Notes under the pieces: model-generated | What the model was told of the DNA's origin: nothing | The model's input: only the letters and a program-made list of their open reading frames with translations | Databases searched by the model: none | Assembly: GCA_964371185.1 (NCBI GenBank) | Contig: CAYJNC010000001.1 | Location: 1-37,991, forward strand | DNA: 37,991 nt | Reading direction: 5' to 3' | DNA from: an uncultured Christensenellaceae bacterium | GTDB taxonomy: Bacteria; Bacillota; Clostridia; Christensenellales; Christensenellaceae | Position numbers and translations under genes: made by a program | Shown: in pieces, positions 2,362 to 31,657 of the stretch | How the letters are laid out: every line of letters starts with the position of its first letter | Numbering within the stretch: the stretch's first letter is position 1

Positions 2362-2364
2362 AAA

Positions 2365-3351: not shown

Positions 3352-3394
3352 GTTTGTCGTAATAGACAAAATAAAATATTATTGGAGGAATGAA

Positions 3395-4559: not shown

Positions 4560-4632
4560 ATACACATAATAGAAGTTGAAATTTGTAAATTTTAGAAGTA
4601 ATTTTCATGCTAACAAAATTTACGGTATAGGT

Positions 4633-5607
4633 ATGGTGAGGATATTGAATACACAGGATAAGGCACAATTAATATGGACGGCTAAGTTATACTACGAGCT
4701 TAATATGAGTCAAGAGGAAATTGCAAAAAGAGGAAACATTTCAAAATCTACAGTGTGTAGACTGCTAAAAAAAGCTGTAGATATGAACTATGTAAAAATA
4801 GAAGTCGTGGATCCGTTTGAGTCTATAGTAAGTTTAGAAGAAGAACTTAAAAAGACATTTAATATTGAAGAAGTCAACGTGTGCCCTGTTTATATTGATG
4901 ATTATATAATCAGGACAAGGGACACATGTAAAATAGCAGCAAAGAACATAACAAGGTTGATAGGCGACAATGACACAATCGGTGTTGGCTGGGGGAGTAC
5001 GATGTATAGTGTGTCACAGCACATTGTTCCTCTAAACCCACCAAAGAGAAATATAAAAATTGTGCAATTGCATGGTACTGTCGTAAAGAATATCGCATCG
5101 GCAAAGAGTACCGGAATAATTGAAAATTTTGCAGAATGTTATTACGGAACAGGATATCTGATGCTTGCACCGGTCTTGGTAGACAGTGTAAATACGGCAG
5201 AGGCAATAAAAAATGATTCGAATATCAGAATGGTTTTTGATATTGTTTCTGAGGCAAATATAGCCGTTGTGGGTGTTGGAGACATGTCTACGAATATGGC
5301 TTTGCTCGAAAGAGGAATTTACACCGAAGAAGAGTTGGTGAAGATTGGTAATATAGACGTAGTCGGTGATATTTGCTCCAGATATTTTGATATATACGGA
5401 AATTCGGTAATGAAGGATATTTCCGATAGGACCATAGCTGTTACTCTTGATGAGCTGAAGAAAAAAAAGCATGTGGTTGGAGTAGCGGTAGGAGAGCATA
5501 AGGTAAGGGCAATTGTGGGAGCGCTGAATACCGGAGTATTTTCGGCTTTTTATACCGATGAATTAACAGCTAAAAAGGTGTTGGCAGTTGCCGGGGGATT
5601 GAGATAG
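4633..5607 (+). CDS. SorC/DeoR-type sugar-binding transcriptional regulator (copy 1)
   Basis: N-terminal HTH LYYELNMSQEEIAKRGNISKSTVCRLLKKA plus a C-terminal sugar-phosphate-binding domain. Colinear with the paralog at 16103-17080. I prefer the ATG at 4633 (MVRILNTQDK). The ORF-track TTG at 4576 would lie only about 10 nt from the predicted transcription start. The start is uncertain. Confidence 0.85.
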   Translation: MVRILNTQDKAQLIWTAKLYYELNMSQEEIAKRGNISKSTVCRLLKKAVDMNYVKIEVVDPFESIVSLEEELKKTFNIEEVNVCPVYIDDYIIRTRDTCKIAAKNITRLIGDNDTIGVGWGSTMYSVSQHIVPLNPPKRNIKIVQLHGTVVKNIASAKSTGIIENFAECYYGTGYLMLAPVLVDSVNTAEAIKNDSNIRMVFDIVSEANIAVVGVGDMSTNMALLERGIYTEEELVKIGNIDVVGDICSRYFDIYGNSVMKDISDRTIAVTLDELKKKKHVVGVAVGEHKVRAIVGALNTGVFSAFYTDELTAKKVLAVAGGLR

Positions 5608-7204: not shown

Positions 7205-8713
7205 ATGAGTGCGAACTTGTTAGGACTTGATTTCGGCACCCAGAGTGTTCGTTGTGGCATTTTTGACGAAAAAGGGAGCGTTTTAGGGGTGGCTGAAGCT
7301 AAATATGACACAAAACATCCGCAAAAAGGATGGGCGGAACAATGCCCGACTCAGTGGATAGATTGTATGAAGCAAGCTATTATTTTAAGTATAAAACAAT
7401 TACAAAAAGAACAAATTGATAATATAATCGGTGTCAGCGTTTGTACTACCTCGAGCACGGTTTTGTGCATAGGGGAAGACAACAAACCACTTAGCGAAGC
7501 GATTTTATGGATGGATAACCGTGCTAAAGAGCAGGTTTTGAGAATAAATCGGCTTAATCACCCGGTGTTAAAATACTGTGGCGGCGAAACATCTGTAGAA
7601 TGGTTGGTGCCAAAAACACTTTGGTTAAAGGAAAATAGGCCGGAAATTTTTAACCGTTCAAAACGCATTGTTGAGATGCAAGACTACATAACATACGTGC
7701 TTACGGGCAGGTGGTGTGCGTCTGTCAGTCAGGCGACTTGCAAGGGGCATTTTGTGTTGGACGAAGGCGGATTTAATGATGATTTCTTTAAGTCTATAGG
7801 CCTTGATAATTACAGAGAAATATATTCTACGGATATTTTAGAACAGGGCGAAATTGCCGGAAATTTAATTGCCGATATGGCGAAAGAAGTAGGGTTGCCG
7901 ACAGATATTCCCGTATACATGGGTGGCATTGATGCTCATGTTAACATGATCGGTTTGGGTGTTGTTAAACCGGGAGACATGGGTTGTGTTATGGGAACGA
8001 GTTTTGTTCATTTGGCGGCAAGCGAAAAACCTGTTTTTGCAGATGGTGTTTGGGGGCCATATAAAAGCGCTATCATACCGAAACAGTATTGCATAGAAGG
8101 TGGACAGGTTTCGGCGGGTTCTATTACGAAGTGGTTTGTTAACGAATTTTCGATAGAAGGTGAAAATCCTTATATGCAAATAGCGGAAGAGGCAAAAAAT
8201 GTTTCTCCCGGTTCTGAGGGTGTAATATGTTTAGATTTTTTCCAAGGTAACAGGACTCCGTATAAAGATCCCTTTGCAAAAGGCATGTTTTATGGCTTAA
8301 CTCTGTCAAACACCAGGGCTCATATGTATAGGGCGGTTCTTGAAGCGGTTGCTTTTGGCACAAGAAATATTATTGAAACAATGGAAAAATCCGGCGCCGA
8401 TATTGCAGAAATCAGAGGGTGTGGCGGTGTAACCAACAATGAAATTTGGCTTAAAATCATTGCCGATGTGTGCAAAAAACCTATTATAATAACTAAAAAT
8501 TCGACGGTTGCGGGTATGCTTGGCGCCGCTATGATAGTTGCTGTGGGAAGTGGCGTTTATAAGGATTTCCAACAAGCGGCAGACAATATGGTGCAGCAAG
8601 TTAGCGTGATTAAACCTGACATGAATTCAGATTATGAACACTATTATGAAAGATATCTTAAGATTTACGATCGCTTAAAAGATATAATGCAAGAAGACGA
8701 ATATAAAGCATAA
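7205..8713 (+). CDS. FGGY-family carbohydrate kinase, paralog 2
   Basis: 502 aa. Colinear with the preceding kinase and carries the same motifs (LGLDFGTQSVRCGI, GGQVSAGSITKWF, FQGNRTPYKDP, GCGGVTNNEIWLKIIADVC). Confidence 0.88.
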   Translation: MSANLLGLDFGTQSVRCGIFDEKGSVLGVAEAKYDTKHPQKGWAEQCPTQWIDCMKQAIILSIKQLQKEQIDNIIGVSVCTTSSTVLCIGEDNKPLSEAILWMDNRAKEQVLRINRLNHPVLKYCGGETSVEWLVPKTLWLKENRPEIFNRSKRIVEMQDYITYVLTGRWCASVSQATCKGHFVLDEGGFNDDFFKSIGLDNYREIYSTDILEQGEIAGNLIADMAKEVGLPTDIPVYMGGIDAHVNMIGLGVVKPGDMGCVMGTSFVHLAASEKPVFADGVWGPYKSAIIPKQYCIEGGQVSAGSITKWFVNEFSIEGENPYMQIAEEAKNVSPGSEGVICLDFFQGNRTPYKDPFAKGMFYGLTLSNTRAHMYRAVLEAVAFGTRNIIETMEKSGADIAEIRGCGGVTNNEIWLKIIADVCKKPIIITKNSTVAGMLGAAMIVAVGSGVYKDFQQAADNMVQQVSVIKPDMNSDYEHYYERYLKIYDRLKDIMQEDEYKA

Positions 8714-8937: not shown

Positions 8938-9561
8938 ATGGATGCAAAAGAAATCAGACAATCGGTGTTGTTTGCACTGAATAGGGCTACAAATAAAAAA
9001 TATGTGTTCGGTGCGGTATCAAACAGGCATGTACATTTATGCCAAGAAGATATAGAAACCCTTTTTGGAAAGGGATATGAGCTGACAATTGCAAAACCGT
9101 TATCTCAACCCGATCAATATGCGGCAAAAGAGACGGTTACTCTGATAGGTAAAAAAGGACAAATAGAAAACATTAGGGTATTAGGCCCAAAAAGACCGGA
9201 AACACAGGTGGAAATATCCATAACAGATTCATTTAAGTTGGGGATACCTCAAGACATAAGAATGTCGGGCGACATAAAAGGCAGCCCGGGTGGAATATTA
9301 AAAACTCAAAACGGAAGTGTAACATTAAAAGAAGGCGTTATTGTATCGGCCAGACACTTGCATATATCAGAAGAACAAGCAGCAGACTACGGTCTTTTTG
9401 ATGGACAAAGAATTTCTTTGCAAACATTAGGCGAGCGTTCTGTTGTATTTAATAATGTGTTGGTAAGAAGTGGTAAAGGGCACGATTTAGAAGTGCACCT
9501 TGATATGGACGAAGCGAATGCGGCAGGCTTTAAAAATGGAGACGTATTAGAATTAGTGTAG
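8938..9561 (+). CDS. pduL: Phosphate propanoyl/acyl-transferase PduL (BMC-associated phosphotransacylase)
   Basis: 207 aa. Two PduL half-domains with VSNRHVHL and SARHLHIS motifs. A roughly 25-aa N-terminal extension precedes the first motif. Confidence 0.9.
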   Translation: MDAKEIRQSVLFALNRATNKKYVFGAVSNRHVHLCQEDIETLFGKGYELTIAKPLSQPDQYAAKETVTLIGKKGQIENIRVLGPKRPETQVEISITDSFKLGIPQDIRMSGDIKGSPGGILKTQNGSVTLKEGVIVSARHLHISEEQAADYGLFDGQRISLQTLGERSVVFNNVLVRSGKGHDLEVHLDMDEANAAGFKNGDVLELV

Positions 9562-9577
9562 CAAAACAGGAGCATAG

Positions 9578-10252
9578 ATGACTGAAAAAGAGCTAAACAT
9601 ATTAATTAACAGAATAGCCGAAGAAGTTTTATTCAGAATAAATCAAGCAGCGCCAAAAGACGAAAAGGTAGAAGGCACAATCGTATTAGTAACATCGTAC
9701 GTTCCATCGCTAAAAACGGCGGTTGAAACTATTGAAAGCTTGTATGAAAAAGAAGAGTATGTTGCGTGTGATGTTGAGTTTGATTTGATAGGTAAGCAAG
9801 TTACTCTTCTTGGCGAAAGTAATGAGGCGGTTGTGTTAGAAAAGGTGGCCGGCAGTGCAAACATTGTAATTTTAACACCAAAGATTTCTTTGCTGGAAAG
9901 AATTGCACACGGAAACGATGATAATTTTACCGAACATGCAATAATGCGGGCACTGCTTTGGGGAAGAAATGTAGAAGTGCTGTTAGACTTTGTGCCCCCA
10001 CGGTTCAAAAGAAACACATTTTTTGAAAAAATAGTAACGGTGATAGAGACGTTAGAAGAAATGGGTGTAAAAGTACTTAGCTATAAGTGCTCGGTAGCGG
10101 TAGATGAAGACAGGTTGGCGTTAGTTACCGAAACAGAAGTGATAGACGCATACAAGGCAGGAAAAGAAAAGATAAATTGTGCGTCAAAGGCGATTGTTAC
10201 ACCATCTGCTAAGGATAAAGCGGCAGAACTGGGAATAATAATAAACTATTAG
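9578..10252 (+). CDS. BMC-operon protein of unknown function with an encapsulation-peptide-like N-terminus
   Basis: 224 aa. The N-terminus TEKELNILINRIAEEVLFRI is an amphipathic helix like PduP/PduD targeting peptides. The core has a Rossmann-like pattern (IVLVTS..., IVILTPKISLLERIAHGNDDNF). The C-terminus ends in KAIVTPSAKDKAAELGIIINY. I cannot assign a family. Confidence 0.6.
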   Translation: MTEKELNILINRIAEEVLFRINQAAPKDEKVEGTIVLVTSYVPSLKTAVETIESLYEKEEYVACDVEFDLIGKQVTLLGESNEAVVLEKVAGSANIVILTPKISLLERIAHGNDDNFTEHAIMRALLWGRNVEVLLDFVPPRFKRNTFFEKIVTVIETLEEMGVKVLSYKCSVAVDEDRLALVTETEVIDAYKAGKEKINCASKAIVTPSAKDKAAELGIIINY

Positions 10253-10261
10253 AGGTGAAAT

Positions 10262-10570
10262 ATGCAACTTGCAAGAGTAAAAGGAACGGTAGTAAGCACA
10301 AACAAGGCCGAGAAAATGTTGGGTTTAAAACTATTGATAGTAAAGCCGATAGAAATAGAGACATTTGAAGAAAAAGGTGGCTTGTTAGTTGTTGTAGATG
10401 CTGTCGGTGCGGGTGAAGGAGAGTTAGTAATGCTTGTCGGAGGAAGTTCATCACGGGCGACAGAAATTACCGATGGTAAGCCGGTAGACATGTCAATAGT
10501 TGCAATAATAGATTCTGTTGAAGTTGAAGGCATACGAATATTTGAAAAATTTAAAGAAGATAAAAAGTAG
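10262..10570 (+). CDS. BMC-P pentameric vertex protein (EutN/CcmL/PduN family), paralog 1
   Basis: 102 aa. MQLARVKGTVVSTNK...LLIVKPIE...VVVDAVGAGEGELVMLVGGSSSR is the canonical EutN/CcmL pattern. Confidence 0.9.
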   Translation: MQLARVKGTVVSTNKAEKMLGLKLLIVKPIEIETFEEKGGLLVVVDAVGAGEGELVMLVGGSSSRATEITDGKPVDMSIVAIIDSVEVEGIRIFEKFKEDKK

Positions 10571-10581
10571 AGGAGTAAGTT

Positions 10582-11964
10582 ATGTCGTTAAATGGGCAAG
10601 ATATTAAAAAGATAGTAGAAGAAACCATGCAACAACTTTGTAATTCAAGTGAATTTTTGTTTGAAGATGCAAACGATGCGGTAAGAAGTGCAAAAGAATC
10701 TCAAAAAGTTTTGGGAAAAATGACACTTGAGCAACGTGGCAAATTGATTGCCAAAATGCGTGAAGTTGCACTCGAAAACAAGGTGTATTTAGCAGAGTTG
10801 GCACATAATGAAACAGGCTACGGAAGTGTTGAACATAAAATATTGAAAAATGAGTTGGCGGCAAATAAGACTCCCGGTGTGGAAGATTTAAGAACAAATG
10901 CGTATAGCGGAGACAACGGTTTAACTATCGTAGAATATGCGCCTTACGGTGTGATAGGTTCTATAACACCTTCTACAAATCCAACCTCTACAATAATAAA
11001 CAATTCTATAAGCATGATAGCTTCGGGTAATGCGGTTGTATATAACCCGCATCCGGCGGCAAAAAAATGTTCGCAAGAGGCTATGAGGTTGATGAACGAG
11101 GCCATTATTTCGGCAGGCGGTCCGGCTACGCTCATAACATCTGTAGTAAAACCAAGTTTGCAAAGCGGTCAAGTTATCATGAACCATAAGGATATTAAGA
11201 TATTGTCGGTAACGGGTGGCGAAGCGGTTGTTGAGGTGGCTATGAAAACAGGTAAGAAGGTTATAGCGGCAGGCCCCGGAAATCCGCCGGTTATAGTAGA
11301 TAACACCGCAAACATAAATCAGGCGGCAAAAGACATTGTTGATGGTGCAAGCTTTGACAATAATGTGTTGTGTGTTGCCGAAAAAGAAGTTTTTGCGTTT
11401 TCTGACATCGCAGACAGCCTGATGGCAGGCATGGAGCAGAACGGAGCAAAAAGAATTTATGGTGATGAAATAGACAAAGTAGTGAAGACCGTACTTGTAA
11501 ATAAAGATGGAAAATATGTTATTAACAGAGACTTCGTCGGCAAACCGGCGGTTCATATATTAAGAGAAGCAGGTGTAAGTTTTAGCGGTTCTCCGCGTTT
11601 GGTAATAGCGGAAGTAACGGCAGACCACCCGTTTGTATGGGTAGAGATGCTTATGCCTGTTTTGGGAATTGTGCGAGTAAATTCTATTGAAAGCGCAATA
11701 GATCATGCGATAGCTGCAGAGCAAGGTTGCCAACACTCGGCCATGATACATTCGACAAACATTAAAAACTTGTCTATGGCGGCAAGTGCTATGAACACTA
11801 CAATATTTGTTAAGAATGCACCTTCGTATTCGGGTCTTGGGTTTGGCGGCGAGGGGTATACAACTCTTACCATAGCTACTCCGACAGGCGAAGGGTTAAC
11901 GAGTGCCATATCATTTACACGTGCAAGACGTTGTGTGTTAAAAGGGGATTTCAGAATAATCTGA
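10582..11964 (+). CDS. CoA-acylating aldehyde dehydrogenase (PduP/EutE type)
   Basis: 460 aa. Catalytic-Cys context FDNNVLCVAEKE and GPGNPPV motif. The N-terminal GQDIKKIVEETMQQL helix precedes the conserved core. Confidence 0.9.
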   Translation: MSLNGQDIKKIVEETMQQLCNSSEFLFEDANDAVRSAKESQKVLGKMTLEQRGKLIAKMREVALENKVYLAELAHNETGYGSVEHKILKNELAANKTPGVEDLRTNAYSGDNGLTIVEYAPYGVIGSITPSTNPTSTIINNSISMIASGNAVVYNPHPAAKKCSQEAMRLMNEAIISAGGPATLITSVVKPSLQSGQVIMNHKDIKILSVTGGEAVVEVAMKTGKKVIAAGPGNPPVIVDNTANINQAAKDIVDGASFDNNVLCVAEKEVFAFSDIADSLMAGMEQNGAKRIYGDEIDKVVKTVLVNKDGKYVINRDFVGKPAVHILREAGVSFSGSPRLVIAEVTADHPFVWVEMLMPVLGIVRVNSIESAIDHAIAAEQGCQHSAMIHSTNIKNLSMAASAMNTTIFVKNAPSYSGLGFGGEGYTTLTIATPTGEGLTSAISFTRARRCVLKGDFRII

Positions 11965-11974
11965 AGAGAAAACA

Positions 11975-13282
11975 ATGAATATAGCCGAACAAATTAGAGA
12001 AGCGGGAATAATTGGTGCAGGTGGTGCAGGGTTCCCGACTCATGTAAAAGTTAATACAAAAGCGGAATATGTGGTTGCAAACGGAGCCGAATGCGAGCCT
12101 TTATTGCGTGTTGACCAACAGGTAATGCAATATGAAGCAAAAAAAGTAGTGGCCGGTTTGGGTGCGATAATGCAACACACAGAAGCAAAAAAAGGTGTGA
12201 TAGCACTAAAAAGGCATTATAAAGATGCGATAGCCGCTTTAAGCAAAGAGCTTACGGCCGGCATGAGCCTTCATATTATGAAAGGGTATTATCCGGCCGG
12301 AGACGAACAACAAATTGTGTATGAAGTAACGGGAAAAGTGGTGCCGACGGGCGGTATCCCCTTAGATGTAGGTGCGGTTGTCTGCAATGTGAGTACCTTG
12401 ATGGAAATTGCAAACGCAATGGAAGGAAAGACAGTAACGGAAAAGTTTGTGACGGTCGGAGGTGCGGTAAAAACACCTAAAACGTTCAAAGTTCCGATTG
12501 GGATAACAGCAAAAGAATTGATAGATGCGGCCGGCGGTACGACTTGCGATTGCGTGTATATAGTTGGCGGGCCTTGTATGGGTGCGGTTAGGGAAGCTAC
12601 AGATTTCCCGATTACAAAAACAACCGGTGGTATTTTGGCAATACCCAAAGGGCATAGCATACTCGCAAAAAAATCAGAAAAAATGAACAGACAACTAATA
12701 CAAGCTGTCTGTTGCCAGTGTTCTATGTGTACACAAATGTGCCCAAGAAACATGCTCGGTTTAAATGTGGAACCTCATAAGGCTATGCGAGCGGTTGTGA
12801 GCGGTGCGGCGTTTAAGGAAGAAACGGCAAATGGGATATTCTCTTGCTGTGATTGCGGAATTTGCACATATTATGCCTGCAACTTTGGTTTGAAACCATC
12901 AAAGGTAATGGGCGAGTTTAAATCACAGATGATAAAAGCCGGAGTAAAGCCTAAAAAAGAAGTACGATATTCGGTTGACAGCAATATAGAGCAAAAGAAA
13001 TTACCGGTTTCTCGTATGGTGTCGAGGTTAGGGCTGAGTGAATATGATGTTGAGGCGCCTATGAATCAAATGCTTATGAATACGTCAATGGTGAGAATAC
13101 CACTTAAAATGCACATAGGAGCGCCATCTGTGCCGGTTGTTAAGGCGGGAGATATGGTGAAAAAAGGTCAGCTTATTGCCGACATTGCACCAAAGGCTTT
13201 AGGGGCAAAGGTGCATTCGAGCATAGACGGACAAGTTTTTGAAGTGACGGAAGAACGGATAGAAATAAGAGGTGTTAGATGA
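11975..13282 (+). CDS. PduS-like / RnfC-like Fe-S flavoprotein (NADH-binding, SLBB, two 4Fe-4S motifs, C-terminal barrel-sandwich domain)
   Basis: 435 aa. GAGGAGFPTHVK nucleotide/flavin motif. CCQCSMCTQMCP (CxxCxxCxxxCP) and CCDCGICTYYAC. The C-terminal IPLKMHIGAPSVPVVKAGDMVKKGQLIA resembles the RnfC hybrid-barrel domain. Confidence 0.8.
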   Translation: MNIAEQIREAGIIGAGGAGFPTHVKVNTKAEYVVANGAECEPLLRVDQQVMQYEAKKVVAGLGAIMQHTEAKKGVIALKRHYKDAIAALSKELTAGMSLHIMKGYYPAGDEQQIVYEVTGKVVPTGGIPLDVGAVVCNVSTLMEIANAMEGKTVTEKFVTVGGAVKTPKTFKVPIGITAKELIDAAGGTTCDCVYIVGGPCMGAVREATDFPITKTTGGILAIPKGHSILAKKSEKMNRQLIQAVCCQCSMCTQMCPRNMLGLNVEPHKAMRAVVSGAAFKEETANGIFSCCDCGICTYYACNFGLKPSKVMGEFKSQMIKAGVKPKKEVRYSVDSNIEQKKLPVSRMVSRLGLSEYDVEAPMNQMLMNTSMVRIPLKMHIGAPSVPVVKAGDMVKKGQLIADIAPKALGAKVHSSIDGQVFEVTEERIEIRGVR

Positions 13283-13827
13283 TGAAAGCGTTAGGCATGG
13301 TAGAGGTAGCGTCTATCCCAAACGGCATAAAAATAGGAGATGCAATGCTAAAAGCGGCATCGGTTGAACTTGTTTTTGCACAAGCGGTCTGTGCCGGAAA
13401 ATATATTGCAGTTGTTTCCGGTGACGTGGCGGCAGTTGAAGAAAGCGTTCGTGTCGGTACAAAACAATGCGAAAGCCAGCTTATAGACAGTCTTGTTTTA
13501 TCTACGGTGCATGAAGATGTCTTTTCGGCAATAAATGCCTGTAGCGAGATAGGAAATGTGGGTGCACTTGGTGTGATGGAAACATTTTCACTGTGTGCGG
13601 CGGTGATAGTTGCGGATGCGGCGGCCAAAGCGGCCGACATAAAATTAATAGAAGTTAGGTTAGGTCGAGGGCTGGGTGGAAAAGCTTTCATCACTATGAC
13701 GGGTGAAGTTTCGGCGGTTGAATCGGCGATAAAAGCGGCACAAGGAGTGCCAAGCATACAAGGGTTGATGTCGGCAAGTGTAGTAATACCTTCGCCGCAT
13801 ACTGATATAGTAAATTCACTATTATAA
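13279..13827 (+). CDS. Tandem-BMC-domain shell protein (BMC-T, PduT-like)
   Basis: 182 aa with two canonical BMC domains ([11 protein letters not shown]...[10 protein letters not shown] and [10 protein letters not shown]...[10 protein letters not shown]). A single Cys sits in AVCAGKY at residue 38. The start overlaps the PduS-like stop (ATGA). Confidence 0.85.
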
Positions 13828-13846
13828 ATATTTAGGAGGAAAATTT

Positions 13847-14146
13847 ATGTCTAAGCAAGCACTTGGAATGGTAGAAACAAAGGGATTAATCGGAGCAATT
13901 GAGGCGGCAGACGCAATGGTTAAGGCGGCAGACGTAACACTTTGCGGAAAAGAACAAATCGGTAGCGGTCTTGTAACCGTAATGGTACGTGGCGATGTAG
14001 GTGCTGTTAAAGCGTCGGTAGATGCAGGAGCGGCGGCCGCAAAAAGAGTCGGCGATTTATACGGAGTTCACGTAATCCCGAGCCCGCATAATGATACAGA
14101 AGTAATTTTGCCTGCGCCAAAAGCAACACCGGCGGCAAAGAAATAA
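13847..14146 (+). CDS. BMC-H hexameric shell protein (PduA/EutM-like), copy 1, with Pro/Lys-rich C-terminal tail
   Basis: 99 aa. [26 protein letters not shown]...[19 protein letters not shown]. Tail is [12 protein letters not shown]. Confidence 0.93.
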
Positions 14147-14147
14147 A

Positions 14148-14414
14148 ATGTATGTCGGTAAAGTTATCGGTCGGGTAGTATCGACCGTAAAAGACGAGAA
14201 CTTAAATAATATTCCGTTGCTTATTGTTAGGCAAATAGAAAACGGAAAGAATACGAAAGTATTGATTGCCACAGATGCCACAAGGCAAGCGGGCAAAGGA
14301 GATTTTGTTTATTTGATAGGGTCTAAAGAGGCGTCACGTTTGTTTAGAAAAAAGTATACGCCGACCGACGCATCAATAGTCGGATTTATAGATTCGTATC
14401 ATGAAAAATTATAA
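14148..14414 (+). CDS. BMC-P vertex protein (EutN/CcmL family), paralog 2
   Basis: 88 aa. MYVGKVIGRVVSTVKDENLNNIPLLIVRQIE. Starts 1 nt after the BMC-H stop. Confidence 0.88.
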   Translation: MYVGKVIGRVVSTVKDENLNNIPLLIVRQIENGKNTKVLIATDATRQAGKGDFVYLIGSKEASRLFRKKYTPTDASIVGFIDSYHEKL

Positions 14415-14427
14415 TTGAGGTGAAATC

Positions 14428-14706
14428 ATGCAAAAATTAGCACTTGGAATGGTAGAAACAAAAGGTTTAATAGGCGCAATTGAGGCGGCAGACGCAATGG
14501 TTAAAGCGGCAGACGTAACACTTTGCGGAAAAGAACAAATCGGTAGCGGTCTTGTAACCGTAATGGTACGTGGCGACGTTGGAGCTGTTAAGGCGGCTGT
14601 AGATGCAGGAGCGGCGGCCGCAAAAAGGGTTGGCGATTTATACGGAGTTCACGTAATCCCGAGCCCGAATGGCGATGTAGAAGCAATTTTACCTAAAGCA
14701 AAATAA
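14428..14706 (+). CDS. BMC-H hexameric shell protein, copy 2
   Basis: 92 aa. Essentially identical core to copy 1. Confidence 0.93.
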
Positions 14707-14769
14707 AATTGTTAAAAACGATAAACGTACTGCCTATATATTTTTTAGGCAAAAAGAAAGGAAATTAAA

Positions 14770-15042
14770 ATGCAAAAACAAGCACTTGGAATGGTAGAAA
14801 CAAAAGGTTTAATAGGCGCAATTGAGGCGGCAGACGCAATGGTTAAAGCGGCAGACGTAACACTTTGCAAAAAAGAACAAATCGGCAGCGGACTTGTAAC
14901 CGTTATGGTTCGTGGCGATGTTGGTGCTGTTAAGGCGGCTGTAGATGCAGGCGCGGCGGCTGCAAAAAGAGTTGGCGATTTATATGGAGTTCATGTAATC
15001 CCGAGCCCTCATGGCGATGTTGAAAGCATAATTGCTAAATAA
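14770..15042 (+). CDS. BMC-H hexameric shell protein, copy 3
   Basis: 90 aa. Same core, with Gly to Lys in TLCKKEQIG. Confidence 0.93.
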
Positions 15043-15045
15043 GAT

Positions 15046-15333
15046 ATGAAAATTGCCAGAGTTGTAGGAAATGTTGTTTCAACAATAAAAGAAGAAACAT
15101 ACAACGGATACAAATTAATGATAGTAGAGTATCTTGATGAAAACGGCAAGCCCGAGGGAAGCAGGGTAATAGCATTCGATGCCGCACAAGCAGGTATAGG
15201 AGATATTGTATTAGTTAATGTAGATGGTGGAGCCGCAAACATGATGCTTGATAAAGACATAATAGCAGACCTAACAATTTGCGGAGTATTAGACAGCATT
15301 ACCTATGAAAATGAAATGAAACAATTAAGTTGA
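15046..15333 (+). CDS. BMC-P vertex protein (EutN/CcmL family), paralog 3
   Basis: 95 aa. MKIARVVGNVVSTIKEETYNGYKLMIVEYLD...AFDAAQAGIGDIVLV. Confidence 0.88.
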   Translation: MKIARVVGNVVSTIKEETYNGYKLMIVEYLDENGKPEGSRVIAFDAAQAGIGDIVLVNVDGGAANMMLDKDIIADLTICGVLDSITYENEMKQLS

Positions 15334-15346
15334 ATGGCGGGAAATT

Positions 15347-16093
15347 ATGGTAGATATTAAAAGGTTGATAGATGAAGTTAGTGCACAGGTAGGGGGCTTC
15401 ATGCCTACTGCTTATGTAAATGATGCAGTTTCAATAAGCGAGATACCGTCAAAATTAGAACACTCGTTGTTAAACCCGGATATTACAGAAAATAAGATCC
15501 GTGAAGAGTGTGCTAAGGCAAGAAGATATGGTGTTGCGGCCGTGTGTGTTGCACCCTACTATGTCGGTGTAATAAGAGAATGTTTAGCAGGTTCGACGGT
15601 TAAAGTTGGGACGGCAATAGGCTTTCCGCATGGATGCTTGTCTACGGCTTCTAAGGTTGCAGAAGCAAAAGAGTGTATTGAGAATGGCGCAAACGAAATT
15701 GATGTTTCGTTAAATATTTTGGCTATAAAATCTCAGAACATGGCAGACGCAAGAAAAGATTTAGAAACCGTTTTAGATGTATGCAGAGGAAAAGCGCTTG
15801 TTAAAGTTGTGTTTGAACACGCCGTTTACTCAGACGATGAAAAAATTGCGGTTCTTAACATGATACGTACGTGTGGTGCGGAATTTGTTAAGATTCAAAA
15901 TGTTCTGAGTGGCAAGGGTGCAGATGCAAACGACATACGTTTTGCAAAAGAAATATTGGGCAATAATGTGGGGATAAAGATAGACGGTGGAGTAAAAACA
16001 CTTGCTAAGGCAGAAGAATTGATTTTGGCAGGTGCAGACAGAATAGGTTTAACGGCCACAATAGAAATCGCAAAAGAGGCTCTGTTGAAGTAG
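15347..16093 (+). CDS. deoC: Deoxyribose-phosphate aldolase family protein (DeoC paralog 1, divergent) with N-terminal extension
   Basis: 248 aa. LEHSLLNPDIT, AVCVAPYYV, EIDVSLNI, VKVVFEH (Schiff-base Lys context), FVKIQNVLSGKGA in place of the canonical [18 protein letters not shown] roughly 33-aa N-terminal extension contains VDIKRLIDEVSAQV. Confidence 0.8.
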   Translation: MVDIKRLIDEVSAQVGGFMPTAYVNDAVSISEIPSKLEHSLLNPDITENKIREECAKARRYGVAAVCVAPYYVGVIRECLAGSTVKVGTAIGFPHGCLSTASKVAEAKECIENGANEIDVSLNILAIKSQNMADARKDLETVLDVCRGKALVKVVFEHAVYSDDEKIAVLNMIRTCGAEFVKIQNVLSGKGADANDIRFAKEILGNNVGIKIDGGVKTLAKAEELILAGADRIGLTATIEIAKEALLK

Positions 16094-16102
16094 GAGATAC
16101 CC

Positions 16103-17080
16103 GTGAAAGAAATAAATGCAAACGAATTGAACTTGATGATTAGCGTAATAAAAAAATATTACGAATTAGGTATGAATCAGGCGCAGATTGCAAAGGAAGA
16201 GTTTATTTCAAAATCTTCGGTTTGTAGGTTGCTTAAGAAGGCTGAGGAATACGGTTATGTAAAACATCAGATCAGTTACCCGGTAGAAACTTCCGGGATA
16301 TTGGAAAATGAGGTGTGCAGAGTATTCTCGCTTGAAAAAGCAATTATTTCACATGTGTATGCAGACAATGAAGAAGTGTTGTTAAACGACACCTGCACTT
16401 CGGTAGTTCATGATTTGTGTAAGATTGTTAAGGCAAAAGACATCATCGGAGTTGCGTGGGGGGTAACAATAGAACACCTTGTAAAAGCGATGAAAAAAAT
16501 GCCGAGAGTAAAAAAATGCGAAAAAGTTGTTTTGATTATTGGGTCTATTGCAGGAACAATAACATCTACGGTTTCGAGTAATATTGTAGAAGAAATATCG
16601 GACTACTTTTCGGCAAAAGGGTATTTATTGCCACTTCCGTTAATTGTAGACAGCGAATCTATCGCAAACACAATTAAAGAAGATTCGCATATTAAAGAAG
16701 TGTTAGACCTTGCAAGAGAATCGCAAATTGTGCTTTTGGGAATCGGAACTGTTGAAGGTGGCTCGGTGTTGCGTACACGCGGGGCGCTTAGTGAAGAAGA
16801 GCTAAAAAGTGTGATAGAAAAAGGTGCGGTTGCAAGCGTTGCCGGGCATTGTGTGGATATCGATGGCAAAGAAGTAAGTTCTGAATTGTCGTCGAGGATG
16901 ACAGGCCTAAGCATAGAAGAGATAAAGGCAAAACCGATAAGAATTGGTATTGCGGTAGGAAAGAGTAAGGCGAGAGCGATAATCGGTGCGCTTAACAGCG
17001 GGATAATCAACCGATTTTACAGCGATGAAAGTACGGTAAAAGAAGTTTTTAAAATATTAAAAAGTGAGGATAAACAATGA
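16103..17080 (+). CDS. SorC/DeoR-type sugar-binding transcriptional regulator (copy 2), embedded in the BMC operon
   Basis: 325 aa. GTG start 6 nt after AGGAGA. HTH YYELGMNQAQIAKEEFISKSSVCRLLKKA. Colinear with the regulator at 4633-5607. Confidence 0.85.
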   Translation: MKEINANELNLMISVIKKYYELGMNQAQIAKEEFISKSSVCRLLKKAEEYGYVKHQISYPVETSGILENEVCRVFSLEKAIISHVYADNEEVLLNDTCTSVVHDLCKIVKAKDIIGVAWGVTIEHLVKAMKKMPRVKKCEKVVLIIGSIAGTITSTVSSNIVEEISDYFSAKGYLLPLPLIVDSESIANTIKEDSHIKEVLDLARESQIVLLGIGTVEGGSVLRTRGALSEEELKSVIEKGAVASVAGHCVDIDGKEVSSELSSRMTGLSIEEIKAKPIRIGIAVGKSKARAIIGALNSGIINRFYSDESTVKEVFKILKSEDKQ

Positions 17081-18135
17081 AAGCAGTAAGAATGTATAAA
17101 CCGGGCGATTTAAGAGTAGAAGATGTTCCAAAACCTGTCCCGACGGATGATCAAGTTTTATTAAAAGTTATGGCGTGTGGTGTTTGCGGTTCAGACATAC
17201 CGCGTGTTAATGTGTATGGTGCTTATATTGCACCGTTAACGGTAGGCCACGAATTTTCGGCAAGAGTTGAAGAAGTTGGCAAAAACATTAAGAATTTTAA
17301 AGTAGGCGACAGGGTTACGGTTCCGCCGCTTATGCCTTGCTATAAATGTGAATGGTGCGAAAAAGGTATATATTCTTTGTGTAAAGATTATGACTATTTT
17401 GGTTCAAGAAGCGACGGTGCAATGGCAGAGTATGTTTGCTCTCCGGAGGCTAACTTGATGAAGTTGCCGGACAACGTAGACTACTTAGACGCAGCAACAA
17501 CAGATCCTTGTGCAAACGCAATCCACGGTTTAAACCAAGCTAAGTTGCAAGAAGGCGAAACAGTTGCGGTATACGGCGCAGGCCCTATTGGTTTGTTTGC
17601 TGTTCAATGCGCAAAAGCTTTCGGAGCAAAAACGGTTATTTCAATAGATTTAGGCGAAAAGAAATTAGACGTCGCTAAAGAATGCGGTGCAGACTATGTT
17701 ATAGATTCTTTAACTCAAAATGCGGTTGAAGAAATCAAAAAAATTACAGACGGTAAAATGGCAGATGTAGTTTTAGACATCACAGGTGCTCCGCCGGCGC
17801 AAATTAATGCGATTAATTCAACAGGTAAGATGGGTAGAATTGTGTTGGTTGGAATTTCACATAAAGGTTTGAGCTTAGGCGAAAAAGAAGTAGACACAAT
17901 TATGCGAAGCCAAATTTCATTAATTGGTTCTTGGAACTCGTTTACTAAACCTTTCCCGGGATACGACTGGACAGAATCTTTGAAATTGTTCTCGGAAGGC
18001 AAAATTACATCAAAACCTATGCTTAGCCACATGTTGACATTAGACGAAGCACCCGGCATATTTAAACAAATTGCAGACGGTGGATTGTTCTTTAATAAAA
18101 TTATGTTCTTACCACATGGCGATAAATTTGAATAA
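17077..18135 (+). CDS. Zn-dependent medium-chain alcohol/polyol(-phosphate) dehydrogenase (sorbitol/galactitol-1-P dehydrogenase-like)
   Basis: 352 aa. CGVCGSDIP and GHEFSARVEEVG catalytic-Zn motifs, structural-Zn CYKCEWCEKGIYSLC, GAGPIGL Rossmann motif. ATGA overlap with the regulator stop. Confidence 0.85.
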   Translation: MKAVRMYKPGDLRVEDVPKPVPTDDQVLLKVMACGVCGSDIPRVNVYGAYIAPLTVGHEFSARVEEVGKNIKNFKVGDRVTVPPLMPCYKCEWCEKGIYSLCKDYDYFGSRSDGAMAEYVCSPEANLMKLPDNVDYLDAATTDPCANAIHGLNQAKLQEGETVAVYGAGPIGLFAVQCAKAFGAKTVISIDLGEKKLDVAKECGADYVIDSLTQNAVEEIKKITDGKMADVVLDITGAPPAQINAINSTGKMGRIVLVGISHKGLSLGEKEVDTIMRSQISLIGSWNSFTKPFPGYDWTESLKLFSEGKITSKPMLSHMLTLDEAPGIFKQIADGGLFFNKIMFLPHGDKFE

Positions 18136-18166
18136 ACCGCAAGTGTGTATTTGAGGAGGAAATAAT

Positions 18167-18991
18167 ATGGATATAAATGCGATAATTAAACAGGTAACAG
18201 AAGAAGTTTGTGCAAAATACAGCACGCCGGCAACAACACAAAGCGGAGATTTATCTCCGGCTTCACTTGCAAAGTATATTGACCATACTTTATTAAAGGC
18301 TGATGCAAGTGTCGAAGGCGTGCGTAAGGTTTGTGACGAAGCTAAAAAATACAATTTTGCAAGCGTGTGTGTGAACCCTTCATACATTAAATTTGTTGCT
18401 GAATGCTTGGCAGGAAGCGGAGTTGCACCTTGTTGTGTAATAGGTTTCCCTTTAGGAGCTTGCACACCCGAGGCAAAGGCGAACGAAGCTGCCGATGCGG
18501 CAAGCAACGGTGCTAAAGAAGTTGACATGGTTGTCAATGTAGGCGCAATAAAATCTAACGACTGGATGCTTGTTAAAAGAGATGTTGAAGGCGTTGTTCA
18601 GGCAACAAAAGGCCGTGCTATAGTAAAAGTTATAATCGAAACTTGCTTGCTTACAGACGAAGAAAAAGTTAAGGCTTGCGCAATAAGCAAAATGGCGGGT
18701 GCTCACTTTGTTAAAACATCAACAGGTTTTTCTACAGGCGGAGCAACGGCAGAAGATGTTGCGTTGATGAGAGAAACGGTTGGACCGGAAATCGGTGTTA
18801 AAGCATCGGGCGGTGTTAAAACTTATGAAGACGCCGTTATGATGATAAAAGCAGGCGCAAACCGTTTGGGAACAAGTTCTGGTGCGGCTATAGTTTCGGG
18901 AGTTTCCGATTCTCACAGCTGTGTAAACTGTGGTGCTTGCAAGGGTAAATGCCCGACAGGTAGTGCAACAATAATTAAAAACAGCTATTAA
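18167..18991 (+). CDS. deoC: Deoxyribose-phosphate aldolase (DeoC paralog 2, canonical core) with an N-terminal targeting-like extension and a C-terminal Cys-motif extension
   Basis: 274 aa. [66 protein letters not shown]. The N-terminal 34 aa are [33 protein letters not shown]. The C-terminal tail is [28 protein letters not shown]. Confidence 0.9.
18920..18955 (+). other. Ferredoxin-type CxxCxxCxxxCP motif encoded at the 3' end of deoC paralog 2
   Basis: TGT GTA AAC TGT GGT GCT TGC AAG GGT AAA TGC CCG = [12 protein letters not shown] (Cys252/255/258/262). Confidence 0.8.
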
Positions 18992-19081
18992 TAATATAAA
19001 AAAAACCGACGGCGGAGTAGTTGCACAATAGCTATTTCGTCGTTAGCTTTTTTAACGCTACTATAAATAAATGGAGAAAAA

Positions 19082-19825
19082 ATGAGAAAGCCAATTATTG
19101 CGGGAAACTGGAAAATGAATATGACACCCGGTGAAACATTTAAGTTGATTTCAGAAATTAAACCTTTGGTGCAGGGGGTGCAGGCGGAAGTGGTTGTTTG
19201 CCCCATGTCGGCATGTTTGTTTGCGGCAAAAGGTGCAATAGAAGGATCAAACATTAAATTGGGTGCGCAAAATGTGTATTTTGAAGAAAACGGGGCATAC
19301 ACAGGCGAAGTTAACGTTGCTACGTTAAAAGAACTGTCGGTAGAATACGTTATTATCGGCCATTCTGAAAGAAGACAGTATTTTAATGAAACAGATGAAA
19401 CTGTTTTGAAAAAGGTTAAAAAGTGCTTAGAATTTGGATTGAAGCCGATTATATGTGTGGGTGAGAGTTTAGAGCAAAAGGAACTCGGTATAACTAAGCA
19501 AGTTGTAGCATTGCAGACTATGTCTGCCTTGCATGGGTTACTTGCAAAAGACTTAGACAACATAGTAATTGCATACGAGCCTGTTTGGGCAATTGGTACC
19601 GGAAAAACGGCAACGGCACAAGATGCAAACCAAACAATTAGGGCGATAAGAAAAACGGTTGCACAGCTTTTTGATGAAAAAGCAAACGAGGTGCGTATAC
19701 AATATGGCGGAAGCATGAATCCGTCTAATGCAAGCGAATTGATGGCAATGAGCGATATAGACGGTGGGCTTATCGGTGGTGCGAGTTTGAAACCAAACGA
19801 TTTTGCAAAGATAGTTAATTATTAA
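19082..19825 (+). CDS. tpiA: Triosephosphate isomerase
   Basis: 247 aa. IIAGNWKMN, IIGHSERR, AYEPVWAIGTGKTA. GGAGA RBS upstream. Confidence 0.95.
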   Translation: MRKPIIAGNWKMNMTPGETFKLISEIKPLVQGVQAEVVVCPMSACLFAAKGAIEGSNIKLGAQNVYFEENGAYTGEVNVATLKELSVEYVIIGHSERRQYFNETDETVLKKVKKCLEFGLKPIICVGESLEQKELGITKQVVALQTMSALHGLLAKDLDNIVIAYEPVWAIGTGKTATAQDANQTIRAIRKTVAQLFDEKANEVRIQYGGSMNPSNASELMAMSDIDGGLIGGASLKPNDFAKIVNY

Positions 19826-19853
19826 TTTAGGTATGAAGAGTGAGGAGATAATT

Positions 19854-20462
19854 ATGAGCGGATTTAATATTAGTGATAATTTATTTGATTATGAAAAAGG
19901 TTTTACGATTGATTTTAATTTATTAAACGGAATGTCTTCCATGAAAAAAACATCAAAAAGATTTTTGAGCAAAGTAAAAGATGTTTTTTATGACGTTGAT
20001 GCGGCAGACGCAGACATTGCAAAAAACGGAGACAAACTTGTGTATGAATTTCACGAGATGGATGCCCCCGACCATATGGGAGATATCGCCTATGGCATGA
20101 GTATTGTGTACCCCGGAAAAGTGGGCAATGAATATTACATGACAAAAGGCCATTTTCATTCGGTGCTTGATACGGCAGAAGTTTATTATTGTTTAGAAGG
20201 ACATGGTTATATGATGCTTGAGAGTCCGGAGGGAGATTGGTCTTGTCATGAATTATTGCCGGGTAAAATGGTTTATTGTCCTCGTAGATATGCACATCGT
20301 TCGATAAACGTTTCGCCTAACGAACCGTTGCGTACATTCTTTGTGTTCAGGGGAGATGCAGGTCATGATTACGGCACAATCGAAGAAAAAGGATATCGTA
20401 ATCTGTTGGTTGAAGAAGATGGCGAACCGAAAATTATAGCTAACCCGAAATGGGGTAAGTAG
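19854..20462 (+). CDS. Cupin-type (archaeal-type) glucose-6-phosphate isomerase family protein
   Basis: TKGHFHSVLDTAEVYY matches the cupin-PGI TxGHxH-x6-ExY signature, and CPRRYAHRSIN matches the second PxxxxHRxxN signature. The ATG at 19854 has a GAGGAG RBS. The ORF-track start at 19833 lacks one. Confidence 0.8.
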   Translation: MSGFNISDNLFDYEKGFTIDFNLLNGMSSMKKTSKRFLSKVKDVFYDVDAADADIAKNGDKLVYEFHEMDAPDHMGDIAYGMSIVYPGKVGNEYYMTKGHFHSVLDTAEVYYCLEGHGYMMLESPEGDWSCHELLPGKMVYCPRRYAHRSINVSPNEPLRTFFVFRGDAGHDYGTIEEKGYRNLLVEEDGEPKIIANPKWGK

Positions 20463-20510
20463 GCAGAATTAGTTTAGCGAAATAAAAATATTTCTCCTAA
20501 TTAAATAACA

Positions 20511-20540
20511 AAAGCCACGATTATCATAATCGTGGCTTTT
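20511..20540 (+). terminator. Rho-independent terminator ending the BMC operon
   Basis: AAAGCCACGATT (20511-20522) pairs with AATCGTGGCTTT (20528-20539) across a 5-nt loop. The U-tract is only the TTT closing the stem plus one more T. Confidence 0.75.
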
Positions 20541-20717
20541 GAAGGTGTTGAGGTTATATTCTAAGGTCTTTTAAATTAAAAGGCGTAAGGCTTTGCCACC
20601 GGTTCTAAGTTATAATATTATGGTTGAAAAGATATAGAAAGTATGTGTTTACCTTTTTTTATTATATAGGTGATAACTCGCTTACTACCCATATACACTA
20701 TAATTCATATAAATTAA

Positions 20718-20762: not shown

Positions 20763-20765
20763 CAG

Positions 20766-20831
20766 GTTTTAGGACAGAGTCCTAAGGTTTTAAAGTGGGT
20801 TTTAGGACAGAGTCCTAAGGTTTTAAAGTGG
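20766..20831. repeat. Perfect 33-bp tandem direct repeat (2 copies), each containing a TTAGGAC-aga-GTCCTAA hairpin
   Basis: GTTTTAGGACAGAGTCCTAAGGTTTTAAAGTGG at 20766-20798 and again at 20799-20831, read directly. Confidence 0.9.
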
Positions 20832-20874
20832 GCGAAGAAATCCGTTCTTCATTGTAATTAAATGTAAATACATC

Positions 20875-26377: not shown

Positions 26378-26416
26378 TAAATCGGATGTTATGTAAATAT
26401 TATTGATATTAATATG

Positions 26417-27595: not shown

Positions 27596-27632
27596 TTGTT
27601 ACTCCTTTTTATTGCGAAAATTTGTTTGCTTT

Positions 27633-28709: not shown

Positions 28710-28832
28710 AATACACCTCTTTCATAAAAAATTTTAATATAATTATGTTGTTTCGTCAATTACATGTTGCGGGAATTTTAAAATGGTTTTGTTGGTTATT
28801 GAAATATTGAGATTTGCGGATATTGCATTTGC

Positions 28833-28861: not shown

Positions 28862-28896
28862 GAAAATAGTTATTTAGATAGTTTTTTGGAGGTAGT

Positions 28897-31644: not shown

Positions 31645-31657
31645 GGGGAAAATATTT

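Follow-up and report, generated by a model that had tools for sequence, protein, structure and literature searches.

A probable SPU4-type bacterial microcompartment locus with two DeoC paralogues in an uncultured Christensenellaceae bacterium

We analysed a bacterial microcompartment (BMC) locus on contig CAYJNC010000001.1 of an uncultured Christensenellaceae bacterium (assembly GCA_964371185.1); the window is the whole stretch of 37,991 nucleotides. Calling of open reading frames (ORFs) with longest-ORF starts fills positions 8938-20462 with 17 genes, all in one direction on the + strand, and exactly reproduces the coordinates of an initial annotation of this DNA. We number them g1 to g17 in this order. 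Neighbouring genes are spaced by -4 to 19 nt, except for 63 nt between g9 and g10, 31 nt between g14 and g15 and 90 nt between g15 and g16; these exceptions were listed initially together with a gap of about 28 nt that was not reproduced. The g5 stop overlaps the g6 start by 4 nt, and g13 and g14 overlap by the same length. Protein families were assigned by Pfam and NCBIfam profile searches. Along the array they are PduL, eut_hyp, BMC-P, CoA-acylating aldehyde dehydrogenase (AldDh), PduS, BMC-T, BMC-H, BMC-P, BMC-H, BMC-H, BMC-P, a first deoxyribose-phosphate aldolase (DERA1), SorC, a Zn-dependent medium-chain dehydrogenase/reductase (MDR), a second aldolase (DERA2), triosephosphate isomerase (TPI) and a cupin-type phosphoglucose isomerase (PGI). 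The families named initially match their profiles, and g2, g5 and g13 had been left unnamed. For comparison we fetched 80 loci with DERA2, of which 54 hold shell genes.

Both shell families are present, and profile search confirms the seven shell proteins counted initially. PF00936 recognises three single-domain proteins (BMC-H: g7, 13847-14146; g9, 14428-14706; g10, 14770-15042) and one tandem protein (BMC-T: g6, 13279-13827), and PF03319 recognises three more (BMC-P: g3, 10262-10570, 91 bits; g8, 14148-14414; g11, 15046-15333, 84 bits), the last of which completes a BMC-P triplet. Most related loci have two BMC-H genes at the position of g7-g10 and the window has three. Given that count, the 91-93% mutual DNA identity of the three genes and the 63-nt gap before g10, the sequence suggests a recent tandem duplication. 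The 182-aa g6 product consists of two PF00936 stretches, with a pore cysteine, C38, in the motif CAGK. Its best NCBIfam model is TIGR02526 eut_PduT (128.5 bits, cut-off 250.3), it matches the PduT-type structures 3nwg and 3n79, and the pore motif C.GK is kept in all 36 of 36 BMC-T homologues. This PduT-type gene is translationally coupled to g5 (11975-13282), encoding a PduS/RnfC-like, NADH-oxidising Fe-S flavoprotein of the metabolosome NADH dehydrogenase (MNdh) type with Complex1_51K, SLBB, Fer4_17 and RnfC_N domains, 252 bits to TIGR01945 rnfC, matches to RnfC structures and two Cys4 motifs, both conserved, in the translation. There is no BMC-Tdp. According to a preprint on Hodarchaeales (PMC12747264), a bacterial complex of PduS-type (MNdh) protein and BMC-Ts has been structurally characterised.

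The aldehyde-processing core consists of g1 (8938-9561), a PduL phosphotransacylase (PTAC; PF06130, 238 bits) whose domain begins at residue 27 after an extension of about 26 aa that is a putative encapsulation peptide, and g4 (10582-11964), an AldDh (PRK15398, 632 bits) with an amphipathic N-terminal extension. The motifs NNVLCVAEKE, NRHVHL and ARHLHIS, picked out in the initial annotation, are all found in the translations. The 224-aa product of g2 (9578-10252) is a flavoprotein-fold protein of the eut_hyp type, again with an N-terminal helix as putative encapsulation peptide. Its eut_hyp/PduM match is weak (TIGR02536, 35.8 bits, cut-off 152.6). In its AlphaFold2 (AF2) model, with a predicted local distance difference test (pLDDT) of 88, the helix spans residues 3-24, and Foldseek relates the core to the UbiX/EpiD/PPC-decarboxylase/DmrB flavoprotein fold (E 2e-5, TM ~0.45). 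Extensions ahead of the homology-defined core are thus found on PduL, AldDh and g2 as well as on both DERAs, and on neither TPI nor the Zn dehydrogenase; in the AF2 models of g2 and DERA2, N-terminal helices are followed by low-confidence linkers. On account of these extensions the five proteins are likely to be encapsulated cargo.

The two DeoC aldolases reported initially both score above the curated cut-off of TIGR00126 deoC (117 bits), but they are not equivalent: DERA1 (g12, 15347-16093, 173 bits) and DERA2 (g15, 18167-18991, 280 bits) share 36% identity, and the pocket of DERA1 is remodelled. Compared with solved DERAs, each begins with about 32 additional residues, and Bacillaceae DERAs align with DERA2 only from query residue 28-33 on. 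DERA2 has a canonical core, matching solved DERAs along the entire barrel at 272-274 bits with all catalytic motifs kept; by alignment it retains the Asp, the Schiff-base Lys, the second Lys and the C-terminal Tyr. Its AF2 model shows an encapsulation-peptide-like helix at residues 3-18 (nt 18173-18220), a barrel with pLDDT >90 and a tail with pLDDT 45-68. DERA1, a divergent paralogue that also starts with a helix, occurs in 42 of the 54 related BMC loci. Throughout its family (n=44), D119, K182 and K211 are invariant, and so are the family-specific I183, N185, I212 and D213; K-I-x-N stands in place of K-T-S-T, K-I-D-G-G in place of K-A-S-G-G, and the C-terminal Tyr is missing. This pattern points to an active site that is conserved but remodelled. 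Judged from the alignments, the two DERAs are a conserved, non-equivalent pair.

Behind its barrel DERA2 carries a Cys tail, C252-x2-C255-G-x-C258-x3-C262-P263 (nt 18920-18955), followed by Y274, whose codon ends at 18988. Among 40 aligned homologues, C252, C255, G256, C258, C262 and P263 never vary and Y274 hardly does. The motif is carried by 119 of the 120 closest database homologues, and its consensus across close homologues (L001-L064, P0002-P0120) is CxxCGxCx(2-7)CP, placed between barrel and C-terminal Tyr. Residues 249-266 give weak matches to Fer4 and FdxA. Shell genes lie in the fetched locus of 53 of 55 tail-bearing DERA2 homologues against 2 of 26 tail-less ones, a count enriched for tail-bearing proteins since one retrieval pattern was derived from the Cys motif itself.

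The same count bears on whether the shell might serve a signature enzyme of a canonical kind, such as a B12-dependent or glycyl-radical one, whose gene lies elsewhere, with the DeoC genes as bystanders. Satellite loci are indeed known for some BMC types (Sutter 2021), but no such enzyme is encoded within 8 kb upstream or 17 kb downstream of the array. Neither diol dehydratase nor ethanolamine ammonia-lyase nor glycyl-radical enzyme is found among the ORFs of at least 100 aa in the whole window, as initially stated for these three; the sole aminotransferase, a further class given as missing, is a DegT-family sugar type in the downstream glycan cluster. A DERA with an encapsulation-peptide-like helix is moreover kept inside the locus in more than 50 assemblies, and shell genes accompany the tail-bearing homologues in the proportion just given. 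We consider a displaced signature enzyme highly improbable.

A DeoC/DERA that feeds acetaldehyde to an acylating aldehyde dehydrogenase and a PTAC is the signature of sugar phosphate utilisation (SPU) microcompartments (PMC4207490, PMC8217296, PMC11585597). The class was defined by Axen et al. 2014, comprised seven subtypes and about 280 loci in Sutter et al. 2021, and was re-curated by Dwyer, Sutter and Kerfeld 2024. With PF00936 and PF03319 shell genes, an N-terminally extended pfam01791 DERA, an acylating AldDh and a BMC-P triplet, the window locus matches the published definition, and the SPU-type assignment made initially, with DeoC/DERA as signature enzyme, is borne out. Set against the BMC locus catalogue, its gene content agrees with subtype SPU4. 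Sutter 2021 describes SPU4 from Firmicutes hosts with AldDh, pfam01791, PTAC (pfam06130), TPI (pfam00121; N-terminally extended in about half of the loci), a BMC-P triplet, two similar BMC-H and a eut_hyp (TIGR02536) protein that is related to pfam02441 flavoproteins and has an N-terminal amphipathic helix; it has no consistent BMC-T, except for PduS-associated BMC-Ts in 14 of 33 loci, and RpiB (pfam02502) is a second SPU signature enzyme in that catalogue. The window has the PduL-type PTAC, the TPI, the flavoprotein-fold eut_hyp protein with its helix, the BMC-P triplet, near-identical BMC-H proteins and a PduS-linked BMC-Ts, and lacks BMC-Tdp.

A look-up of the exact DERA2 sequence in public assemblies gave no record; the closest named relative by DERA2 (83% identity) is Christensenella (Catabacter) hongkongensis. 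Its locus in strain HKU16 (L001) is syntenic with the window at 57-92% protein identity, and its 181-aa BMC-T is 69% identical to g6. The BMC-T tree of the catalogue has the entry 'Catabacter ABBA15k ... bmcType=SPU4 (main) 181aa', from another strain. Because the SPU4 description fits, C. hongkongensis is syntenic and the Catabacter BMC-T is labelled SPU4, we file the locus as an RpiB-less form of SPU4; as the locus of a sister species already stands in the catalogue, it is a further example of a catalogued subtype. SPU is among the most widespread microcompartment types and almost unstudied in vivo, and the window adds an SPU4 example from a gut-associated, Christensenellaceae-like lineage. 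A literature search for Christensenella microcompartments gave no paper that bears on SPU. The catalogued SPU4 loci (C. hongkongensis and metagenome-assembled genomes (MAGs) labelled 'Clostridiales R-7') share AldDh, DERA, PduL-type PTAC, TPI, the eut_hyp protein, the BMC-P triplet and PduS-associated BMC-Ts with the window, whose gene order is that of C. hongkongensis. Unlike them, the window lacks pfam02502 RpiB, has three BMC-H instead of two, a TPI without extension and an additional cupin PGI, and its transporter and kinase genes lie upstream instead of downstream.

About 30 Christensenellaceae, Oscillospiraceae and Synergistaceae assemblies share a common core order: PduL, g2, BMC-P, AldDh, PduS, BMC-T, BMC-H, BMC-P, BMC-H, BMC-P, DERA1 and DERA2, plus TPI where present. 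The DERA pair and the Cys tail appear to be traits of the whole SPU4 group and not of the window alone. In Christensenellaceae, Synergistaceae and related MAGs, SorC and one or two Zn dehydrogenases are inserted, with FGGY kinases and CUT2 transporters nearby; in Oscillospiraceae loci their place is taken by a DeoR(DeoRC) regulator and an iron-type alcohol dehydrogenase (Fe-ADH), both upstream, and there is no Zn dehydrogenase. Around the same core, one set of loci thus combines Fe-ADH with DeoR(DeoRC) (L006, L011, L014, L015, L018, L019, L028, L031, L033, L058) and the complementary set combines Zn dehydrogenase with SorC (L001, L005, L008, L016, L027, L029). A third layout (L052, L053, L057), the Lachnospiraceae/Eubacterium type of SPU4, shares with the window the Cys-tailed DERA2, AldDh, PduS, BMC-T, BMC-H, BMC-P triplet, Zn dehydrogenase, TPI and a g2 homologue. 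In it, RpiB (PF02502) and a housekeeping-type Pta (PF01515) replace DERA1 and PduL, and the TPI ORF has 276-287 aa against 247 aa in the window. Searches with tblastn using Fe-ADH, Pta, RpiB and DeoR(DeoRC) proteins from related loci gave no match in any frame of the window.

The statement in the initial annotation that no SPU member has been biochemically characterised is outdated. DERA and ribose-5-phosphate isomerase (RPI) of SPU6, the only SPU subtype with purified enzymes, were purified by Dwyer, Sutter and Kerfeld 2024, who measured the kinetics of the DERA on deoxyribose-5-phosphate and showed that the two enzymes form a complex; from purified SPU-type shell proteins of Hodarchaeales a shell complex has been reconstituted (PMC12747264). 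SPU6 of Chloroflexi resembles the window in its N-terminally extended DERA, AldDh, BMC-P triplet and Asp/Lys/Lys active site. It differs in having RPI, BMC-Tdp and a C-terminal encapsulation peptide on AldDh and in lacking PduL and PduS, whereas the window has PduL, the PduS/PduT pair and two paralogous DERAs, of which DERA2 bears a Cys4 tail at its C-terminus. The Hodarchaeales system shares the DERA and AldDh core, a PTAC, TPI, an MNdh-BMC-Ts relay with a C-x-G-K pore motif and a DERA-associated flavoprotein, which is there fused to DERA and here the separate g2; it is of archaeal/Myxococcota origin and includes a BMC-P whose disordered tail binds DNA. With the classical deo/dra operons (E. 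coli deoCABD; B. subtilis dra-nupC-pdp with DeoR) the window shares DERA chemistry and a SorC-family, DeoR-like regulator. In contrast to them, it has no nucleoside phosphorylase, phosphopentomutase or nucleoside transporter, and its aldolase stands amid shell genes and bears putative targeting and Cys-rich appendages.

We propose, with good confidence, that this is an RpiB-less SPU4 microcompartment with a PduS/PduT pair that works through DERA2, AldDh and PduL. We derive the individual steps from the protein families and from published SPU studies. The shell, built of three BMC-H, one PduT-type BMC-T and three BMC-P proteins, would admit 2-deoxyribose-5-phosphate or a close analogue of it. 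Inside, DERA2, probably brought to the lumen by its N-terminal amphipathic helix, would cleave it to acetaldehyde and glyceraldehyde-3-phosphate. Encapsulated AldDh would turn acetaldehyde into acetyl-CoA and NADH, and PduL would convert acetyl-CoA to acetyl-phosphate, so that CoA is recycled within the shell. No Fe-type alcohol dehydrogenase is encoded in the window, so the PduS-like flavoprotein probably re-oxidises the NADH of the lumen and passes the electrons out by way of a [4Fe-4S] site at the Cys38 pore of BMC-T; the g2 flavoprotein-fold protein may take part in this re-oxidation. Glyceraldehyde-3-phosphate would leave the shell and meet a cytosolic TPI. DERA1 would act as a second, probably encapsulated aldolase with its remodelled but conserved active site.

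Upstream of the array and on the same strand, the functional locus probably extends to position 871. A CUT2-type sugar ABC transporter (871-4447; ATPase 871-2361, ABC_tran; permease 2365-3351, BPD_transp_2; binding protein 3326-4447, Peripla_BP_4) is followed by a SorC/DeoR-type sugar-phosphate-sensing regulator (4576-5607; PF04198, 218 bits; Bacillus DeoR model 256 bits, cut-off 420) and two FGGY-family pentulose-type kinases (5609-7168 and 7205-8713; FGGY_N, FGGY_C). The second SorC/DeoR-type regulator, g13 (16103-17080; PF04198, 173 bits; Bacillus DeoR model 197 bits, below cut-off), lies inside the array, and the two regulators would together control expression. Arabinose, xylose and ribose transporters are the nearest NCBIfam models of the transporter, all below cut-off. 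The best solved relative of its binding protein is 4yv7, on which a literature search found nothing, followed by ribose-binding proteins. The kinases score about 300-330 bits with ribulokinase/xylulokinase models, also below cut-off, and their best PDB relatives are of the xylulose-/ribulokinase type. The BMC loci of C. hongkongensis (L001), L016, L027, L029, L037 and L053 have transporter homologues on their flanks, and an orthologue of the second kinase (55-56% identity) lies inside or beside the BMC operon in L001 and L008. The transporter is a probable supply route; with the two kinases and the Zn dehydrogenase it probably makes up a supply branch in the cytosol. As a test system the locus is compact and complete, with shell, cargo, electron relay, regulators and perhaps an uptake and kinase branch within 20 kb. 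We also considered an lsr (AI-2) system, which combines a CUT2 transporter, SorC, an FGGY kinase and a DeoC/LacD-family protein, and rejected it, since Lsr models have much lower scores than the pentose and DeoC models.

Several points count against the proposed SPU4 mechanism. Hydrophobic-moment analysis of the N-termini does not cleanly split putative cargo from non-cargo, so the case for encapsulation peptides rests on the extensions and the AF2 helices. RpiB was not found in the window (tblastn with the L053 and L045 proteins, E >0.3; no PF02502 hit in the ORFs); its absence does not exclude SPU4, because RPI is present in 18 of 29 curated SPU4 loci and in none of SPU5 (Dwyer 2024). A hairpin between DERA2 and TPI, described below, implies that the 17 genes may not share a single transcript. 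Nucleoside phosphorylase, phosphopentomutase and PfkB deoxyribokinase, the usual routes to deoxyribose-5-phosphate, are not found in the window. FGGY kinases and a polyol-type MDR dehydrogenase, which the window has instead, are not known to make deoxyribose-5-phosphate or another 2-deoxy aldose phosphate.

This last point cuts both ways, since it also weakens the alternative that the same compartment is fed not by deoxyribose-5-phosphate from DNA or nucleosides but by a pentose, pentitol or deoxy-sugar from outside the cell, which the CUT2 transporter would import, the FGGY kinases phosphorylate and the Zn dehydrogenase oxidise or reduce to the aldolase substrate. The genes would fit such a feed: transporter, SorC and both kinases stand immediately upstream on the same strand; SorC and the Zn dehydrogenase, overlapping by 4 nt, are embedded between DERA1 and DERA2; in C. 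hongkongensis the orthologue of the second kinase lies between DERA2 and TPI, with an ABC transporter just downstream; other related loci have FGGY kinases, a xylose-isomerase-like TIM barrel or AraA-like isomerase, and CUT2 transporters; and the nucleoside-catabolic genes are missing from the window. Against this, the Oscillospiraceae loci do without these genes and have DeoR(DeoRC) and Fe-ADH, which makes the module lineage-specific; DERA2 has the canonical form of a DERA; and kinase, binding-protein and dehydrogenase matches all fall below equivalog cut-offs, so that their substrates cannot be named. We hold an imported-sugar feed to be possible, if the less probable supply. The linkage of the locus to sugar transporters, FGGY kinases and polyol dehydrogenases, on which the searched SPU descriptions are silent, calls into question DNA-derived deoxyribose-5-phosphate as the sole feed.

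Returning to the proposed DERA2-AldDh-PduL compartment, the role of DERA1 can be read in two further ways. It may define a second encapsulated reaction on another (deoxy)sugar, possibly non-phosphorylated, so that the shell handles two substrates or sees the release of some aldehyde besides acetaldehyde. The Asp/Lys/Lys triad and the invariant family-specific replacements in all 44 family members would suit this, as would the missing C-terminal Tyr, the encapsulation-peptide-like helix and the retention in 42 of 54 loci; but DERA1 still scores above the deoC equivalog cut-off, the sequence gives no substrate, and the changes could equally mean that efficient catalysis was lost. We put the second reaction forward tentatively. 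Alternatively, DERA1 could be mainly structural and organise the cargo core, as proposed for the catalytically weak RpiB of SPU6, which is absent here. That RPI binds DERA, likely 1:1, has little or no isomerase activity and was proposed to act in packaging (Dwyer 2024). Moreover, the window has DERA1 without RpiB, and L052, L053 and L057 have RpiB without DERA1. Yet L045 holds both, and the strict invariance of the triad and its neighbours across sequences that are 40-66% identical argues for kept catalysis, which leaves a mainly structural DERA1 unlikely. Between a different substrate and a purely structural role, the alignments make the former somewhat more likely.

The Cys tail of DERA2 invites a more speculative proposal, namely that the C-terminal segment binds an Fe-S cluster or a metal, and that the state of the cluster could gate aldehyde production or tether DERA2 to the PduS-PduT relay; from the motif we regard this as conceivable but doubtful. 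In E. coli DERA the C-terminal Tyr259 is reported to move into the active site when the enzyme closes (Schulte 2018, cited in PMC8403123). Cluster-gated catalysis is conceivable because the Cys segment sits between the TIM barrel and this Tyr. The tail is unstructured in the AF2 model, which is expected as the model contains no cofactor. In the main text of Dwyer 2024 iron does not occur and cysteine comes up for RPI only, and the searched text of the Hodarchaeales preprint (PMC12747264) notes the flavoprotein-DERA fusion and not the motif. Neither the non-equivalent DERA pair nor the ferredoxin-like Cys motif before the catalytic C-terminal Tyr is mentioned in the SPU descriptions searched; both are testable features.

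In an exhaustive search of representative DERAs, many are fused at the N-terminus to flavoprotein (PF02441), RpiB or PfkB kinase domains. CxxCGxC occurs about 43 residues ahead of the barrel in 23 of 54 long-extension representatives, against 1 of 87 short ones with any CxxCxxC. Metagenomic relatives of one fused DERA sit in BMC loci of other SPU layouts (L081-L111), and most of these relatives have Cys-rich segments beside the barrel too. If DERA2 did bind a cluster, redox- or metal-coupled DERA could be a general SPU trait, as Cys-rich, ferredoxin-like segments flank the barrel N-terminally in other subtypes, in many cases behind a fused flavoprotein or RpiB domain. A profile HMM of the g2 family did not match the N-terminal domains of long flavoprotein-DERA fusions, and the link between g2 and these fusions stays at the level of fold and Pfam family. 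Many BMC-locus DERAs of the other layouts (P0170-P0316; L081-L111) show flavoprotein or RpiB N-terminal fusions with CxxCGxC or other Cys-rich segments about 40 residues before the barrel, and P0291 is a PfkB kinase-DERA fusion. In a Synergistaceae MAG (L030, 9992-10828) the DERA2 ORF ends early and the Cys-tail sequence follows in another frame within a 64-nt 'intergenic' stretch, probably by a frameshift or assembly error. Beside the sporulation genes spoIIIAA/AE, and away from any full shell locus, L004, L009 and L051 hold a SorC regulator, an FGGY-like gene, a single BMC-H and a DERA2 with the tail, in what looks like a satellite locus.

The dehydrogenase g14 (17077-18135; ADH_N, ADH_zinc_N) is a Zn-dependent MDR of the polyol or polyol-phosphate type, closest to galactitol-1-phosphate 5-dehydrogenase (GatD model 295 bits, below cut-off; PDB 4a2c, GatD, 234 bits), with homologues in 13 of the 54 related BMC loci. 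One could take it for the alcohol dehydrogenase of the metabolosome, reducing acetaldehyde to ethanol for NAD+ recycling, as its distribution is complementary to that of Fe-ADH (Fe-ADH in Oscillospiraceae, Zn dehydrogenase in Christensenellaceae and Synergistaceae). This complementarity is confounded by phylogeny, however; g14 has no N-terminal targeting extension, its nearest relatives are polyol or polyol-phosphate dehydrogenases (GatD, sorbitol, threonine) and not of the ethanol type, and the PduS/PduT pair already supplies recycling. We find an ethanol-forming g14 quite improbable.

The last two genes were initially given as the destination of triose-phosphate leaving the shell, of which the TPI part stands. 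TPI (g16, 19082-19825, 247 aa; PF00121, 315 bits, from residue 4; TIGR00419 above cut-off) has no N-terminal extension, is probably cytosolic and follows DERA2 in 29 of the 54 related BMC loci. The cupin PGI (g17, 19833-20462; PF06560, 94 bits), which aligns over its full length with cupin PGI structures of Pyrococcus/Thermococcus (about 165 bits), has no homologue in any of the 80 related loci, including the 54 with shell genes, and also sits past the hairpin. Owing to this absence we do not count it in the system, outside of which it probably belongs. The hairpin (19008-19044, + strand), found by consensus scan in the gap between DERA2 and TPI, is terminator- or attenuator-like and ends in a U6 run (fold -22.9 kcal/mol, z -4.1, 0 of 200 shuffles as good). 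A similar one is present in L016, and Oscillospiraceae loci have just a 15-nt gap at this place. Because of it, what had been called a 17-gene operon, though intact as an array on one strand, may consist of a unit of 15 genes and, behind it, a TPI-PGI unit transcribed by read-through. A second hairpin with a perfect 15-bp stem (20509-20541, strand not assigned; consensus scan, fold z -4.7) closes the gene array. A sigma-70 promoter scan of the window gave 46 sites against 43.8 expected in shuffled sequence, so we claim no promoter, and an Rfam scan of the whole window found neither a riboswitch nor another RNA family.

Downstream of the array, a perfect 33-nt tandem repeat of 2.1 copies (20765-20832), with the palindrome TAGGAC-AGA-GTCCTA in each unit, lies about 110 nt upstream of a 1281-aa ORF and may be a paired operator site. 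This ORF (20944-24789) has no Pfam or NCBIfam match above threshold and a weak CBM_X2 match at residues 1071-1100 only. Finally, positions 25253-37876 hold, on both strands, a glycan/exopolysaccharide biosynthesis cluster with UDP-GlcNAc 2-epimerase, several GT4 glycosyltransferases, a Bac_transf priming transferase, a GFO/IDH/MocA oxidoreductase, a hexapeptide acyltransferase, the DegT aminotransferase, a DUF6077 protein and UDP-glucose dehydrogenase.

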